Below are positions 39,573-55,122 of a stretch of 64,000 nucleotides of DNA, piece by piece. Position 1 is the first letter of the stretch. Every line of letters begins with the position of its first letter. The stretch covers positions 27,541 to 91,540 of the forward strand of contig VGRY01000006.1 of the NCBI GenBank assembly GCA_016875195.1. Reading direction: 5' to 3'. A program made the translations under genes and the position numbers. The notes beneath the pieces were generated by a model, which saw nothing but the letters and a program-made list of their open reading frames with translations, made no database searches and was not told the origin of the DNA. This DNA is from Deltaproteobacteria bacterium. GTDB taxonomy: Bacteria; Desulfobacterota; BSN033; UBA1163.

Positions 39573-39899
39573 TTACAAAGTTAATAAGTCTTCGGCCAGG
39601 TAAGCTGCTTCAACCTTCGATAGATTCTTATAGAATCTTATCTCATGGGGCTTCTTGAGAAGGATCATCGCCCCGAGCAACACCTTAAACACATCTGATT
39701 GGAGGTGTTTGGAAATAGCCTCGACGGTTTCCCACTCTTCTAAAAGAAAGAACTCATTTTCATCTTCGACACTCTGGTAAAAGTCACAGCAACGGCAGCC
39801 CGTCTCTTTTCTGATTGAACCCATCAGGGAGGTAATCGATTGTAAGAGCTCCAGCCGTTTCTCCGGAATCACATTCATCCGAATCGTAAGTGACGTCAT
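39573..39899 (-). CDS. Antibiotic-biosynthesis-monooxygenase (ABM) fold protein
   Basis: MTSLTIRMNVIPEKRLELLQ..FYQSVEDENEFFLLEEWETVEAISKHLQSDVF. The 5' extension in the ORF track contains the sigma54 promoter. Confidence 0.7.
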   Translation of the reverse strand: MTSLTIRMNVIPEKRLELLQSITSLMGSIRKETGCRCCDFYQSVEDENEFFLLEEWETVEAISKHLQSDVFKVLLGAMILLKKPHEIRFYKNLSKVEAAYLAEDLLTL

Positions 39900-39910
39900 A
39901 GACGGCCTTA

Positions 39911-39926
39911 AGCAAAAGAGTTGCCA
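39911..39926 (-). promoter_or_regulatory. sigma54 promoter TGGCAA-N5-TTGCT
   Basis: Minus strand tggcaactcttttgct with canonical GG-N10-GC spacing. TTGCT is followed by 11 nt, then ATG 39899. Confidence 0.7.
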
Positions 39927-40085: not shown

Positions 40086-42266
40086 TTACTCTGGAAGCTT
40101 CACTTCAGGACGGCATATTCTGAGTTTCTGCATCCTTGCTCTCAGGGTGCTTGGGTGGAGGTCCAGAATTTCCGCGGCTCCCTTTAGCCCATTGATGCGC
40201 CACCGGGTTTCAGAAAGAGTCTTAAGAATCTGGTCTCGTTCCGTCTCCGCAAGGGTCCTCAGCGTGGATGGTAATAGGGGAGAGGTATTTTCCAGTTTAT
40301 CCGATAGCTTTAATAGCGGCCCGGAGGACAGGATCACAGCCCGCTCGATGACATTCTCAAGTTCCCGGATGTTTCCGGGCCACGAGTAATCCTGGAGTGC
40401 CTTCATCGTTTCCTTCTGAATTGATGTGATCTGTTTGCCCAGTCCTTTGGAAAGTCTCTCGATGAAGGTCTGAACCAGCAGCGGGATGTCCTCTTTCCGC
40501 TGCCTGAGCGGGGGCACCGTAATGGGAAAGGTGTTGAGCCGATAGTACAGGTCTTGTCGAAAACGACCCTTTCGAACCTCTTCTTCAAGGTTTCGATTGG
40601 TCGTTGCTATAATTCGCACGTCCACTCTGACCGTATGGGAGGAACCCAGACGTTCAAACGCATTGTGCTGGATCACCCGGAGCAACTTGGCCTGGACTTC
40701 CAGTGGTAATTCTCCTATCTCGTCGAGGCAAAGGGTCGAACCATTGGCCACCTCGAACCGCCCCACCTGCCGGGTATCAGCTCCGGTAAATGCCCCCTTC
40801 TCCCGGCCGAACAGCTCGCTTTCAATTAAATTGGCCGGCAGGGCTGCGCAGTTTACGGTGACCAGCGGCCGGTCCTTACGAGGGCTCATCTGATGGATGG
40901 CGGAAGCGATCAACTCCTTTCCCGTACCGGTCTCGCCGAGGATGAGGACCGTCGTGTTCGTCGGAGCGACCTGCTCCGCCCGATGAAGGACGTATTTGAA
41001 GGCATTGCTTTGACCGATGATATGGCCGAACTGGTATTTCAACTTAACTTCTTGCCGGAAGTAAAGATTCTCAGTCTCCAGTTGGTCTTTTAATGTCTTG
41101 ATCTCAGAAAGAGCATTGCGCAGGGATTCCTCCACGCTCTTATGTTCGGTGATGTCGTGGAGAATCTCCATCTTCATAACATCCCCGCGTTCGTTGAGGA
41201 TCGGCGTGCTAAAAGCATCATAGGTCTTGCCGGTTTGTGGCGAATCCCATTCCCACTGGACAGACTTTCCGGCAAATACCTCTTGAATCTTGCACCAGGT
41301 ACAGGGTGTCGGGAGATCATGAAAATAGGCATGGCACTTGCGTCCATTGACCGGGCCATGTTCCTTTTCGATGACGGGGTTAATGTACTGTATGTCACGA
41401 TTTTGATTGGTGATATAGACGCCGTCATTCAGGGATTCCAGGATGCCCTTCAGTTTATTACGTTCCAGTTGCAGGATCTTTTCGGTCTGCCTGCTTCGCT
41501 CGATCTCCTTCTTCAGTTGCTCGTTGGCTCTCTGGAGTTCGACAGTGCGCTCATGGCCCCGCTGCTCCAGGTATTCGAGCAAAGATTCCCGTTCCTCTTC
41601 CATCCTCTTGTTGGTGAGGATGATCGCCATGATTTTACCGAATCCGGAAGCCATGTGTGCGTCGTCTTCGGTGAATCCCCCTGGTTTGTTTGCAAAGCCA
41701 AGCAAACCTATCCCCTCCCCATTGACAATCATTGGAGCAAACAGAACATTAAAAAGCGGCAAAGGTCCTTCCGGCATCAATCTCATACGACCGCCATTCG
41801 AGAAATCATTCTGAAAAACGGCCCGCCTCGTATGGAACACCGTGTCACACAACACCCGAATAGGCATGGCAAGGTTGCAATCGACCGGGTAAGGCAATCC
41901 CTCCGAGTCCAGAAAAAAGACTCCATTTTCTGTGCCCTTCTTATTCAAAAGAGCAACGTATCCTATTTTGGCTCCAAGCAGGTTCTTGCAAGAATCGAAT
42001 AGGGTTTGGGTTGCCTCTTTAAAATCGTTTTGCACCAAGACAGCCTTCGCCCTGCTCATCAACCCCGATATCTCCTCTTGAGACCTCTGAGATTGTCCAA
42101 GAGTCTTAGTAAGAGTTTGCTCTGCTCTGATACGCTGGGCAGCTCTCCCGAGCTGAATGGCATACGCTTTTATCACGTGTGGCTGCCTCTCTAGAAAGGG
42201 ACTCTCATTGTCTATTGCCTTTTCGCCCATATCATCAACCTCAATCGACTTACAATGATTCAGCAA
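40086..42266 (-). CDS. sigma54-dependent transcriptional activator (GAF + PAS + AAA+ + Fis HTH)
   Basis: GETGTGKE Walker A, GAFTGA sigma54-contact loop, C-terminal [22 protein letters not shown]. Confidence 0.9.
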
Positions 42267-43078: not shown

Positions 43079-43533
43079 TTATTGGGACCTTAGGCTGGCG
43101 TATTGATTGTTTTCTTCAAGCCGTGCGAGGCGCTCGATAATGGCGTTGTTGAGCAACTCAAACCACTCGACCCATTGAGGTTGACCATATTCAATCCGCA
43201 GTCCGATCCAAATCGATTCAACCTTTTTCCAGGAAGTGATGATTGGACCAGAGAGAAGGTCGTCAAGAAGATCGAGAGGGGCGAGTCGGCGCTTATAGAG
43301 GAGGCCCATGTTCTCGAAGAATACGCTTACGACCATGAGAGAGATGTGGTCATCTTCGGTAGCCGCCATCTTGAAGTCCTCATAGGCGTCATATTTCCAT
43401 GTGGTGACATGACGGTATCAATCTGGCGGAGGCGGTTCTGGTTGCGTAGCTGAAGAAGAGCGATGACGACGCCGACAATAATAGCGAGTGGAGCGGCGAT
43501 GGTAAGAGCCTTTTGAATAACCTCGAATGACAC
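43079..43533 (-). pseudogene. Membrane-anchored hypothetical protein split by an apparent frameshift near 43410
   Basis: ORF 43327-43533 (TM helix, LQLRNQNRLRQID) and ORF 43079-43369 overlap in different frames. The second frame is already open from 43416 (YRHVTTWKYDAYEDFKMAATEDD..). Confidence 0.45.
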
Positions 43534-43880
43534 GTTTCACCTCGCCATAGAAGGATTAAGAAACTCAAAGCACCCATGAAAGGTGCGTTAAGAATTAATA
43601 TGATTCTTAGTTTTTGACCATGTAGCCCCCCTAATTTAAAAATGGTCCCTCACAAAAAATACTTCCTTTCTATCATGAAAGCATATCCATGTGAGATTTT
43701 CTTTGACTTAAGTCAAAAAAAAACCGCAGGCTCGTCTGTTTGATTTTCAACAGACTGCCTAAACTTCAACAAAGAATTCCTTAAGACATGATTGCAACGT
43801 AACAACATTCCAGGATCTCTTTTCCGGTAACTATCCAATATTTTTTGTTAAATCAGCTTTTACCCTTTCCCATCAAGGTC

Positions 43881-43896
43881 TGGCACAAGGATTGCT
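43881..43896 (+). promoter_or_regulatory. sigma54 promoter TGGCAC-N5-TTGCT
   Basis: tggcacaaggattgct is a perfect consensus. 11 nt (ctctatactgc, no SD) lie between it and ATG 43908. Confidence 0.75.
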
Positions 43897-43907
43897 CTCT
43901 ATACTGC

Positions 43908-44594
43908 ATGAATGTTTTAATCATCAAACATGCGGAGATTGAAGGACCTGGATTGATTGGAGACCTTCTTGTGCAGGGGAAAATCCCCTATCAGATGATC
44001 GAACTCTATCTCAACACTCCCCTTCCCAAGCCTGAGGGTTTTTCACATATCGTCATCCTGGGAGGGCCGATGAATGTCTATGAGGAAGACCAATATCCTT
44101 TCCTTAGAAACGAAGACATTTTTATTAAAGAAGCGATTCAAAGGGGGAGAGCTATCCTGGGAATATGTCTGGGAGCCCAGTTGATCGCCAAAGCCTTGGG
44201 TGCAAAAGTTTTTAAAGCCCCTGTGAAAGAGATCGGATGGTATGAGGTCTCGTTGACCAGGGTAGGTTCTCAGGACCCTCTCTTCTCCAATCTTCCCAAA
44301 AAATTTCCTGTGTTCCAGTGGCATGAGGATACTTTTGAAATTCCAAGAGGAGGTCAATTGATCGCTACATCCAGCCCCGTGTCTCACCAAGCCTTCCGGT
44401 ATGGAGAGGCTGCTTACGGCCTTCAGTTTCATCTCGAAGTGACCAAAGAGATGATCCGTGACTGGTTGGAAGCTGATGAGGATGGGGATAAAAAACCCCA
44501 GATTTTAATTCAAACAGAGAGGAAGATCGAAAGCTATAAGCAAAGGGGAATGAACTTTTTTAGAACTTTTTTTGAGGCTCATGGACCCATTTAA
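43908..44594 (+). CDS. Class I glutamine amidotransferase (stand-alone GATase1, GuaA-N-like)
   Basis: MNVLIIKHAEIEGPG..ILGICLGAQL (nucleophile Cys)..FQWHED..LQFHLE. Confidence 0.85.
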   Translation: MNVLIIKHAEIEGPGLIGDLLVQGKIPYQMIELYLNTPLPKPEGFSHIVILGGPMNVYEEDQYPFLRNEDIFIKEAIQRGRAILGICLGAQLIAKALGAKVFKAPVKEIGWYEVSLTRVGSQDPLFSNLPKKFPVFQWHEDTFEIPRGGQLIATSSPVSHQAFRYGEAAYGLQFHLEVTKEMIRDWLEADEDGDKKPQILIQTERKIESYKQRGMNFFRTFFEAHGPI

Positions 44595-44625
44595 GACTTG
44601 AAACAGATTCTGCAGGAGGGATGCA

Positions 44626-48879
<4,254 letters not shown>

Positions 48880-51929: not shown

Positions 51930-51974
51930 TGACCGATGAACCATCATCTGTTCATCGTATTGAAAGGGGCAAAC

Positions 51975-53414
51975 ATGCAGACGATCCTCATTGTTGACGA
52001 TGATAAATCGATCCGCTACTCTCTGAAAAGGATGCTGGAAGATCATTTTTCCATCCTCACTGCCCAGAATGGAGAAGAAGCCCTATCGCGCATGAAAGAA
52101 TCTTCCCCTGATCTGATCATCATGGATATCAAGATGCCTGGCCGGAACGGAATCGATGTGTTGAAGGAGATGAAGTTCCTTGACCCGAAGTCCCTCATCA
52201 TTCTGATGACCGCCTATGGCACTACAGAGACGGCGATCGAGGCGATGAAATTTGGGGCTTTCGATTACATCCTCAAACCTTTCCCGATTCCACAGATGAA
52301 AGAGTTGGTGCAAAAGGCGATCGCATTGCGGAAACTGATGAAGGAAGAAGTCTCCTATGCATCCGAACCGGATCAACAAAAAGAGGAAGAACAGATCATC
52401 GGTTCCGCTCCCAAGATGCAGGAGATCTATAAGGTGATCGGACAGGTGGCTCCCAGCGATGTCACTGTCCTCCTCAGAGGCGAGAGTGGAACGGGAAAGG
52501 AATTAGTGGCACGTGCAATCTATCACTACAGCCTCCGTTCGAGCTACCCGTTTCTTCCGGTCAATTGTGCTGCCATCCCGGATACCCTTCTCGAAAGTGA
52601 ACTCTTCGGCCATGAAAAAGGAGCTTTTACCGGTGCCATCTCCAGGCGCATCGGAAAACTGGAACAATGTCAGGGAGGGACCATTTTTCTGGATGAAATC
52701 GGTGACATGTCTCTCTCCACTCAGGCCAAACTCCTCAGAATCCTTCAGGAAAAGACTTTTGAAAGGCTTGGGGGAAGGGAAACGCTCAGGGTGGATATTC
52801 GATTTATCGTGGCAACGAATAAAGATCTTGAAGAGGCGATGGTCAGGGGGGAATTTCGTGAAGACCTCTATTACCGGCTCAATGTGGTCTCTATCAAGAT
52901 TCCTCCTTTAAGGGAAAGAAAAGAGGATATCCCGAACCTCACCTCTTACTTCTTAAAAAAATTCAATCGTGATTTAAAGCGGAAGGTCGCCGGGATCACT
53001 CCATCGGCAATGGGAAAAATCACCTCCTACGGATGGCCAGGAAATGTGAGACAATTGGAAAATGTTCTGAAAAGAGCCGTGCTCCTCTGCCAGGGAGAAT
53101 GGATTCTTGATGATCAACTCCTTCTTGATGTAGAAGAGAGACGAGAGGCTGCAGAGGTTCTGAAAGGAAAGACATTCGAGGGCCTACTCGATTCCCTCTT
53201 TATGGAACTCACGGAAACCTCCCCGGACCGGGAAGGTCTGGATATGGTTTCAGCCATTGAGAAAGGGTTGATCCTTCGTGCCCTTCAAAAGACGAACGGA
53301 AACCAGGTTCAGGCAGCTTCGCTTCTCGGAATCAATCGGGGCACGCTCCGGAGCAAAATGGAGCGGTATCACATTAGAAAAGAGGTGCTGGTTTCCGAAG
53401 AGGATAATGAATAA
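51975..53414 (+). CDS. NtrC-family sigma54-dependent response regulator (REC-AAA+-Fis HTH)
   Basis: MQTILIVDDD..DLIIMDIKMPG, GESGTGKE, GAFTGA, and C-terminal AASLLGINRGTLRSKM. ATG 51975 with SD aagggg is preferred over 51936. Confidence 0.9.
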   Translation: MQTILIVDDDKSIRYSLKRMLEDHFSILTAQNGEEALSRMKESSPDLIIMDIKMPGRNGIDVLKEMKFLDPKSLIILMTAYGTTETAIEAMKFGAFDYILKPFPIPQMKELVQKAIALRKLMKEEVSYASEPDQQKEEEQIIGSAPKMQEIYKVIGQVAPSDVTVLLRGESGTGKELVARAIYHYSLRSSYPFLPVNCAAIPDTLLESELFGHEKGAFTGAISRRIGKLEQCQGGTIFLDEIGDMSLSTQAKLLRILQEKTFERLGGRETLRVDIRFIVATNKDLEEAMVRGEFREDLYYRLNVVSIKIPPLRERKEDIPNLTSYFLKKFNRDLKRKVAGITPSAMGKITSYGWPGNVRQLENVLKRAVLLCQGEWILDDQLLLDVEERREAAEVLKGKTFEGLLDSLFMELTETSPDREGLDMVSAIEKGLILRALQKTNGNQVQAASLLGINRGTLRSKMERYHIRKEVLVSEEDNE

Positions 53415-53589: not shown

Positions 53590-53605
53590 TGGCATATTAT
53601 TTGCT
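53590..53605 (+). promoter_or_regulatory. sigma54 promoter TGGCAT-N5-TTGCT upstream of glnA
   Basis: tggcatattatttgct with canonical spacing. The predicted TSS at ~53616 is 4 nt before P1. Confidence 0.75.
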
Positions 53606-53619
53606 ATTAATATTTCGTT

Positions 53620-53684
53620 AATACGATGGGGTATTAGAATGACAAGGGCGTCTTTCTTAAAACGGAGAGACGCCTTTTTATTTT
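53620..53684 (+). promoter_or_regulatory. ANTAR-type antiterminator/terminator module (glnA leader)
   Basis: P1 AATAC-GATGGG-GTATT at 53620-53635. P2 GAC-AAGGGC-GTC at 53641-53652. Terminator GGCGTCTTTC-ttaaaacg-GAGAGACGCC at 53647-53674 plus TTTTTATTTT. Confidence 0.75.
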
Positions 53685-53690
53685 AATAAA

Positions 53691-53799: not shown

Positions 53800-55122
53800 A
53801 TGGACAAAGCAACTGTATTGAAGATGGCGAAGGAGAATGATGTCAAATTTATCCGACTCTGGTTTACGGACATTCTGGGATTTCTGAAGGGGTTTTCGAT
53901 CACCATCCATGAACTCGAAGGGGCCCTTGAGGAAGGCATGGGGTTTGATGGTTCCTCGATCCAGGGATATGCTCGAATCGACGAAAGCGATATGATCGCT
54001 AAGCCTGACCCAAAGACCTTCCAGATCATCCCGTGGCGACCCAAAGAGAATGCAGTAGCCCGGATGTTTGCCGATGTCTATGAACCTGATGGAACCCCCT
54101 ACAAAGGCGACCCCAGATTCGTCTTAAAAAAGACTCTTAAGAAGGCGCATGACCTTGGATATACCTTATATGTCGGGCCTGAACTGGAATATTTCTACTT
54201 TAAAAGCAGTGATGGGGCGCCACAGATTCTTGATAAAGGAGGATATTTTGACCTCACCCCTCTGGATGTGGCAACCGAACTCCGGCGTGAAACCATTCTC
54301 ACACTTGAAGCCATGGGTATCAGGGTGGAATACAGCCATCACGAGGTAGCCCCGAGCCAGCATGAGATCGATCTCCGTTATGCCGAGGCTCTGAGCATGG
54401 CAGACAATGCCATGACCTATCGCCTCGTGGTGAAGGAGGTTGCATTGAGACACGGTGTCTACGCCACATTCATGCCCAAACCCATTTTTAAACAGAACGG
54501 AAGCGGGATGCACACCCATCAGTCCCTTTTCAAGGGTGACACGAATGTCTTCTTCGATCCGAAGGATGAATTCCATCTTTCAAAGATTGCCAAGTCTTAT
54601 ATGGCCGGAATTTTAAAACATTCAAAGGAAATCACCTCCATCACCTCCCAGTGGATCAACTCTTACAAAAGACTTGTCCCAGGATACGAAGCGCCGGTCT
54701 ATATCGCCTGGGCCCGGAGAAACCGTTCGGCACTGGTCCGGGTTCCCATGTATAAACCTGGAAAAGAGAAAGCCACACGGATGGAACTCCGCTCCCCCGA
54801 TCCGGCATGCAATCCCTATCTGGCCTTTGCTGTCATGTTGGCTGCAGGCCTGAAGGGAATCGAGAAGGGTTATGAACTTCCGTCTCCTGTTGAGGAGGAC
54901 ATTTTTGAGATGTCTGAAGAGGCACGGAAAAGACACGGAATCGAATCGCTTCCGGGAAGTCTATATGAAGCCATCCAGCTCACCGAACAGAGTGAACTGG
55001 TAAGAGAAACCCTTGGAGACCACATCTTCCATAAATTCATTGAAAACAAGAAGATCGAATGGGATCAGTACCGGACCCACATCTCCCAGTTCGAATTGGA
55101 GAAGTATCTGCCTATTCTTTAA
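53800..55122 (+). CDS. glnA: Glutamine synthetase type I, paralog 2 (complete, 440 aa)
   Basis: GMGFDGSSIQGY, GPELEYFYF, HHEVAPSQHEIDLRY, NGSGMHTHQSLF, RVPMYKPGKEKATRMELRSPD. SD aaggagga upstream. Confidence 0.95.
   Translation: MDKATVLKMAKENDVKFIRLWFTDILGFLKGFSITIHELEGALEEGMGFDGSSIQGYARIDESDMIAKPDPKTFQIIPWRPKENAVARMFADVYEPDGTPYKGDPRFVLKKTLKKAHDLGYTLYVGPELEYFYFKSSDGAPQILDKGGYFDLTPLDVATELRRETILTLEAMGIRVEYSHHEVAPSQHEIDLRYAEALSMADNAMTYRLVVKEVALRHGVYATFMPKPIFKQNGSGMHTHQSLFKGDTNVFFDPKDEFHLSKIAKSYMAGILKHSKEITSITSQWINSYKRLVPGYEAPVYIAWARRNRSALVRVPMYKPGKEKATRMELRSPDPACNPYLAFAVMLAAGLKGIEKGYELPSPVEEDIFEMSEEARKRHGIESLPGSLYEAIQLTEQSELVRETLGDHIFHKFIENKKIEWDQYRTHISQFELEKYLPIL

Follow-up and report, generated by a model that had tools for sequence, protein, structure and literature searches.

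A putative sigma-54 promoter abutting the start codon of an amidotransferase-amtB-glnK-glnD operon and probable leaderless translation of its first cistron

The window analyzed here, a whole stretch of 64,000 nt, corresponds to C6:27541-91540 of a 4.08-Mb MAG of 187 contigs and 47% G+C. On its plus strand, the first cistron of a nitrogen-assimilation operon (43908..44594) encodes a class-I glutamine amidotransferase of 228 aa (PF00117), which resembles the PRK07053 and PRK08250 models with a score below their equivalog cut-offs, and it lacks a Shine-Dalgarno (SD) sequence. It is followed on the same strand by amtB, encoding an ammonium channel (44626..45933, SD GGAGG at 44615-19), glnK, encoding PII (46029..46367, SD GGAGG at 46018-22), and glnD, encoding an uridylyltransferase (46357..48879), the start of which overlaps the end of glnK. 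The two GGAGG sequences are each placed 6 nt from their start codons, and successive genes are separated by 31 nt and 95 nt or, in the case of glnK and glnD, overlap by 11 nt. The original prediction of an operon continuing through amtB-glnK-glnD with short gaps was confirmed as to gene order, which is kept in most of the orthologous loci. In a sequence-run search the locus was found only in lake-water DNA metagenomes. The closest loci in named records belong to Thermodesulfobacteriota, Deltaproteobacteria or Syntrophaceae MAGs, with no cultured relative among them. RNA runs were searched for the operon and for its SPRUCE peat orthologue (L033), and neither was found in any of them.

Translation from the ATG at 43908 gives the N-terminus MNVLIIKHAE, which the original prediction took to be the true one. 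Three observations agree with this: NCBIfam family profiles align from residue 1-2 of the amidotransferase, homologues across many phyla begin with M-x-(I/V)-L-I-(I/V)-K-H at 0-3 residues from ATG 43908, and in 6/10 close orthologues no in-frame upstream start codon is present before a stop. A conserved in-frame ATG further downstream was looked for in the amidotransferase orthologues and none was identified. At this locus the sole in-frame upstream start is the TTG at 43845. It was rejected as the initiator, the resulting 21-residue extension crossing the promoter, not being conserved and being impossible in six of the orthologues.

The lack of an SD sequence before this ATG, another of the original claims, was borne out, as none of the 4-mers GGAG, GAGG and AGGA occurs between the promoter and ATG 43908. 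The 3' end of the host's own 16S, and with it the anti-SD sequence, is absent from the assembly. The only purine tract near the amidotransferase ATG is AAGGA in the promoter spacer. This was discarded as an SD candidate: it lies 16 nt from the ATG, and an ARRGA spacer is also present in leadered orthologues that have an SD of their own. In a crude genome-wide count, a 4-mer SD preceded 42% of the longest-ORF starts against a background of 16%. SD use is therefore common in this genome, as had been said, and the stronger wording that most genes carry a strong SD is roughly supported at best.

Immediately upstream of the amidotransferase gene, on the plus strand, there is a motif that conforms exactly to the sigma-54 consensus. 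Its -24 element TGGCAC occupies 43881..43886 (GG at 43882-83) and its -12 element TTGCT occupies 43892..43896 (GC at 43894-95); the spacer between them is aagga, and the GG and GC doublets are exactly 10 nt apart (TGGCAC-N5-TTGCW). Between TTGCT and the ATG at 43908-43910 there are 11 nt, ctctatactgc, so that both the motif and its gap to the start codon were exactly as predicted. Counting from the -12 C at 43895, the nominal +1 (C+12) would be 43907, 1 nt 5' of the A of the ATG, and the transcription start zone predicted from the -24/-12 geometry (C+11 to C+13) covers 43906..43908. The purines nearest to the nominal +1 are G43906 and A43908, and A43908 fits the usual preference of RNA polymerase for a pyrimidine at -1 and a purine at +1 (PMC12403871). 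In Campylobacter, sigma-54 motifs are located 8-13 nt before the mapped transcription starts (PMC3847290). Allowing up to one mismatch, TGGCAC-N5-TTGCW was found 7 times in the window versus 1.45 expected, and 0/100 shuffles reached 7; the exact motif occurs 16 times in the whole 4.08-Mb genome. On the best reading of the sequence, 43881-43896 would be a functional activator-dependent sigma-54 promoter of the nitrogen-assimilation operon.

The genome has the corresponding machinery. An rpoN gene is located on contig C58 (PF04552 match, 214 bits), and there are 21 PF00158 matches, about 20 of them full AAA+ activator domains, of which two are encoded in the window. One of these is an NtrC-type activator with receiver, sigma-54 AAA+ and HTH_8 domains (51936..53414, plus strand), which lies behind a GAF histidine kinase; the pair is encoded 8 kb downstream of the promoter. 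Considering the nitrogen context, this regulator is the most likely activator of the amidotransferase promoter. The alternative candidate is a GAF-PAS-AAA+-HTH sigma-54 activator on the minus strand (40086..42266), which more probably serves the promoter of an ABM-fold gene at 39911-39926 than the amidotransferase promoter.

Two conserved blocks were identified upstream of the promoter, both present in 15/15 of the aligned orthologous loci that bear the sigma-54 motif (a set that includes the window's own locus and to which G014 is additional). Block A (TTTTnAnCAGnyTGCYTAAA...ACAA; 43744..43774, plus strand) lies about 105-140 nt before the GG and is conserved irrespective of the gene that is found upstream. 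Its position makes it a candidate activator binding site. No clear dyad was seen in it, and when the regions before the genome's 54 other strong sigma-54 motifs were searched for a second copy of block A or for 11-mers in common, only noise was returned. The AT-rich block B (AACTATyCAATAAtyTTgaTaAAA; 43827..43855, plus strand) lies about 25-55 nt before the GG and is a possible DNA-bending site, though not a clean match to the IHF consensus. A TCTGTT/AACAGA inverted repeat that also occurs upstream of the glnA promoter was considered as an activator site; it is not called a binding site here because its spacing differs and its left half is unconserved in the orthologues. Block A itself overlaps a terminator-like element on the minus strand (43716-43775), with a hairpin and U9 at this locus. 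A minus-strand terminator was rejected as the explanation of the block: the A-run and the left arm are unconserved, and what is kept in 15/15 loci is the right half only (CAGnyTGCYTAAA). A protein binding site belonging to the promoter of the amidotransferase operon seems to describe the element better than a conserved terminator does. A second terminator-like minus-strand hairpin, GCACCTTTCATGGGTGC then TTTGAGTTTC, was noticed at 43570-43586 in the divergent intergenic region, with no minus-strand gene to its right.

The main transcripts could instead come from an unrecognised promoter farther upstream in the intergenic region, which measures 330-540 nt, and carry an AU-rich leader on which translation of the amidotransferase begins without an SD, the sigma-54 promoter adding a minor, poorly translated leaderless species. 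SD-less internal initiation occurs in many bacteria, a 4-mer SD is lacking from about half of the ORF starts in the crude genome count, and three weak sigma-70-like matches, with 9 of 12 positions at best, were located at 43576-43676. However, the sigma-70-like matches are not convincingly above the shuffles (4 found versus 1.8 expected) and none lies within 230 nt upstream of the amidotransferase gene. What is conserved is the sigma-54 motif together with blocks A and B, placed where an activator and a bending protein would act; a -35/-10 pair is not among the conserved features. An upstream promoter would also leave unexplained the fixed 12-16-nt spacing, the co-variation of leader and SD and the empty 20-24-nt zone that are described below, and we consider it unlikely. 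An Rfam search of 43300-46500 gave no family match.

Comparison of the orthologous loci provided most of the evidence on the spacing between promoter and start codon. In ten orthologues from related Thermodesulfobacteriota MAGs (L021, L023, L024, L029, L031-L035 and L037) the motif TGGCAY-N5-TTGCT is followed by 12-16 nt and then by the start codon, which is ATG in 9/10 and GTG in L032. The stretch from TTGCT to the start is variable in these ten loci, pyrimidine- or AT-rich, and contains no GGAG, GAGG, AGGA or AAGG. When the window's locus is included, the SD 4-mers GGAG, GAGG and AGGA are absent from the 11-16 nt before the start in 11/11 loci; a C or T immediately precedes the start codon in each of the 11, and an A or G stands at +1 in each. 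Another five orthologues (L039, L040, L042, L043 and G014) keep the promoter with a gap of 24-55 nt, and all five show a purine-rich SD-like tract (AAGG, AAGGA, GAGGA or AGGA) 6-13 nt before the ATG. The -12 element is invariant as ATTGCT in 15/15 of the sigma-54-bearing loci; the -24 element is TGGCAY in the ten short-gap orthologues and TGGCAT or TGGTAT in the leadered ones. Orthologues without the promoter sit behind other genes, and several of them have an SD (L022 with GAGGA, L028 and L041). Leader and SD are, by this comparison, gained and lost together while the promoter and the protein persist, as would be the case if translation of the short-gap versions were leaderless. The case of L032 (1190-1240), where TTGCT-ttttacttttat-GTG shows GTG in place of ATG in the leaderless geometry, would be a natural case for judging start-codon tolerance.

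The same geometry was observed elsewhere in the genome. A scan for motifs with GG, GC and all seven flanking consensus positions gave 57 strong matches, which were compared with the starts of ORFs of at least 80 aa. In 8/57, the amidotransferase included, the A of an ATG lies 13-19 nt past the -12 C, and about one in seven strong sigma-54 motifs thus has the abutting layout. No ORF start was found 7-12 nt or 20-24 nt past the -12 C, and a second cluster of starts occurs at 25-42 nt, the inspected members of which carry strong SDs. By our own calculation the empty 7-12 and 20-24 zones have a chance of about 1e-4 if starts are uniform over 7-42 nt. Besides the amidotransferase, the short-gap genes encode an 81-aa membrane protein, a DUF4124 protein with a signal peptide, FliK, PilZ, a PAS histidine kinase, a DUF4388 protein and a single-domain response regulator. 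A ninth is the ABM-fold gene, whose motif has one mismatch. The start codon is ATG in all nine, and it is supported by the Pfam domains of the short-gap proteins, which begin at residue 1-9. At C15:5019-5760 the divergent PilZ and FliK genes are about 330 nt apart and have two back-to-back sigma-54 motifs between them, each 13-14 nt before its own ATG and without an SD.

The ABM-fold gene (39576-39899, minus strand) is preceded by the second sigma-54 motif of this layout in the window, TGGCAACTCTTTTGCT (39911..39926, minus strand), located 11 nt before its ATG. Five relatives retain the arrangement, at six orthologous loci in total; in 6/6, TTGCA and the ATG are 12 nt apart, the base at -1 is a pyrimidine and an SD is lacking.

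A transcription start located slightly downstream, within the ATG or codon 2, has to be weighed at this point. Sigma-54 transcripts would then be unable to yield the amidotransferase, its ORF serving only as a 700-nt leader for amtB-glnK-glnD, and the protein itself would be made from another, unseen promoter. This locus does have the shortest spacing seen in the genome and the orthologues, 13 nt from the -12 C to the A of the ATG. In addition, a strong SD of its own precedes amtB, and sigma-54 transcription starts, where mapped, vary by several nucleotides (PMC3847290). However, no start codon nearer than C+13 was seen in the genome or in the orthologues, and a cut-off this sharp would follow from a requirement that the codon not precede the transcription start. 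The pyrimidine at -1 and purine at +1 in 11/11 loci also stand against a start within the gene, as does the want of any other promoter-like site within 230 nt. Furthermore, orthologues with a longer gap acquire an SD, which indicates that transcripts of this promoter are intended to yield the product of the first cistron. We therefore regard a start inside the gene as quite unlikely, and retain a start on the ATG or just before it.

The layout extends to the relatives. TGGCAY-N5-TTGCT followed by an ATG within 36 nt was present in 41/41 family genomes searched, with about 15 such sites per genome versus about 0.4 for the reversed control. At least 133 distinct sites were listed for 13 genomes. 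Among those listed, and counted without an ORF filter, the distance to the first ATG peaks at 10-16 nt (49 sites), with about 7 sites per position at 10-16 nt and about 3.3 at 17-34 nt. This excess appears to match the short-gap class of the window's genome. The possibility that the motif before the amidotransferase gene arose by chance or is the site of some other protein, the gene being merely SD-less, seems very remote. The exact 11-position consensus is conserved across loci with diverged flanks, the motif is enriched over the reversed control in every one of the 41 relatives, rpoN and activators are present, and a nitrogen-assimilation context is classic for sigma-54. Judged by its conservation, the abutting layout is a selected design and not an accident, because it is kept in the orthologues and recurs at sigma-54 genes of this genome and of the family.

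From these comparisons we infer, rather than observe, the position of the 5' end, the dependence on RpoN and an activator, and leaderless translation. It is probable that an activator-dependent sigma-54 promoter here places the mRNA 5' end 0-2 nt upstream of the AUG, with leaderless translation of the first cistron. The sigma-54 holoenzyme would bind the GG and GC elements to form a closed complex, which an AAA+ activator bound to the block about 105-140 nt upstream would remodel; the NtrC-type regulator (51936-53414), phosphorylated in nitrogen limitation, is the most likely activator. Since the -12 C lies 13 nt upstream, the first transcribed base would be A43908 or one 1-2 nt before it. Such a message would have neither leader nor SD, so the first cistron would be initiated in a leaderless manner, with the ribosome loading directly on the 5'-terminal AUG, and amtB, glnK and glnD would be initiated internally through their GGAGG sites. 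The 5' six bases of a message starting at the ATG are predicted to be unpaired (P >0.75) in 8/11 orthologues, codon-shuffled controls averaging about 0.6, and an unpaired 5' AUG would lend weak support to leaderless initiation.

Two points count against leaderless initiation. Many orthologues would have leaders of 1-4 nt if the start were fixed at C+12, and Krishnan et al. reportedly found in 2010 that 1-3 extra 5' nucleotides lower the binding of E. coli ribosomes to leaderless messages. The second is the use of GTG in L032, GTG being a poor leaderless start codon in E. coli. Non-AUG start codons have been described as inefficient on leaderless messages (PMC3616915), and a message has been defined as leaderless when no more than 5 nt separate its 5' end from the start codon (PMC12754779).

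The putative promoter can be compared with NtrC-type sigma-54 promoters such as E. coli glnAp2 and those of the GnfL/GnfM system of Geobacter sulfurreducens (PMC2995071). It shares with them the -24 GG/-12 GC consensus, a conserved upstream block at activator distance, a nearby NtrC-type regulator with its histidine kinase, and the targets amtB, glnK, glnD and glnA. The leaders of the known promoters are tens of nucleotides long and include an SD, whereas the 11 nt from the -12 element to the start codon are too few here to accommodate a leader, SD or attenuator. In G. sulfurreducens several nitrogen sigma-54 leaders carry ANTAR-controlled terminators (PMC2995071). The glnA gene of the same cluster in the window (53800-55122) shows the opposite design: its promoter TGGCATATTATTTGCT (TGGCAT-N5-TTGCT at 53590) is followed by a leader of about 195 nt, in which a terminator-like hairpin and T-run occupy 53650-53685. 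Considering the long glnA leader and the abutting start of the amidotransferase gene, the nitrogen cluster appears to use both designs.

Concerning leaderless genes, many are found in Deinococcus-Thermus (PMC12340547) and they have been mapped in rhizobia (PMC3616915, PMC4842269). A TGnTA extended -10 motif has been reported for them, with no specific promoters described (PMC4842269). The amidotransferase message would resemble sigma-70-type leaderless mRNAs, such as lambda cI and those of Deinococcus-Thermus, Actinobacteria and rhizobia, in having its start codon at the predicted 5' end, AUG in 10/11 loci, no SD and a 5' end predicted to be unstructured. In the sigma-70-type genes, however, a -10 or extended -10 element lies next to the ORF, whereas the promoter here belongs to the enhancer-dependent sigma-54 class, so that the leaderless message would arise only on the command of an activator. 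A further parallel is the activator-dependent late promoter of phage P2 gene V, which is positively controlled with its +1 on the start codon. It would be alike in combining activator dependence with a +1 at the start codon, and different in that a phage gene is transcribed there by the sigma-70 holoenzyme with an Ogr-type activator, in place of a chromosomal metabolic operon by sigma-54. In the genome-wide start-site studies that we consulted, leaderless genes are described only behind -10-type promoters. The original prediction held that sigma-54-driven leaderless mRNAs are not commonly described, and in agreement with it our search of open-access full text, which covered start-site studies and papers on sigma-54 regulons, found no paper linking sigma-54 to leaderless mRNA; sigma-54 promoters and leaderless translation are each well known, and their combination appears to be new here.

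A broader reading, tentative and in our judgement somewhat doubtful, is that sigma-54 leaderless mRNAs constitute a distinct and widespread design in which translation of the first cistron is set by the point where the transcript starts. The SD-less AUG would be usable solely as a 5' end, and the amidotransferase would consequently be made only from activator-fired transcripts of this promoter. Read-through RNA would still give AmtB, GlnK and GlnD through their SDs, with the first cistron silent; L024 and L034 have glnK or amtB copies upstream on the same strand as a possible source of read-through. The same logic would extend to the FliK, PilZ, two-component and ABM genes of the genome. If the 5' end is confirmed, it would follow that DNA melting and initiation by an enhancer-dependent polymerase are possible right at the start codon, and that SD-independent translation can be combined with a promoter under tight on-off control. 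Such a message would have no room for leader-based control, whereas an ANTAR-type leader controls glnA in the same cluster. Confirmation would also improve the annotation of start codons and promoters in uncultured Thermodesulfobacteriota. The orthologue series constitutes a natural set of constructs in which leader and SD vary together.

Finally, some repeated sequences were noticed in the window and in the genome. The amtB-glnK spacer (45945-46010) contains a hairpin of -33.8 kcal/mol formed by inverted GTTCGGAG/CTCCGAAC repeats. It is probably not a terminator within the operon because no U-run follows it. Its core, CTCCGAACTCCGAAC, has 43 copies in the genome, mostly in places that look intergenic, which suggests a REP- or MITE-like repeat family. 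A second repeat family, ending in CCCAACTTCCGCAGTTTGTTGAAAAAAATGCCCTGTTTATGCGGGG, is identical at six contig positions (C26, C34, C42, C54, C101 and C141), and a third, TAGCAGGATGCTGAAAAACGCCCATCTRC, was found on contigs C25, C42, C48, C86 and C89; both may be the ends of mobile elements.
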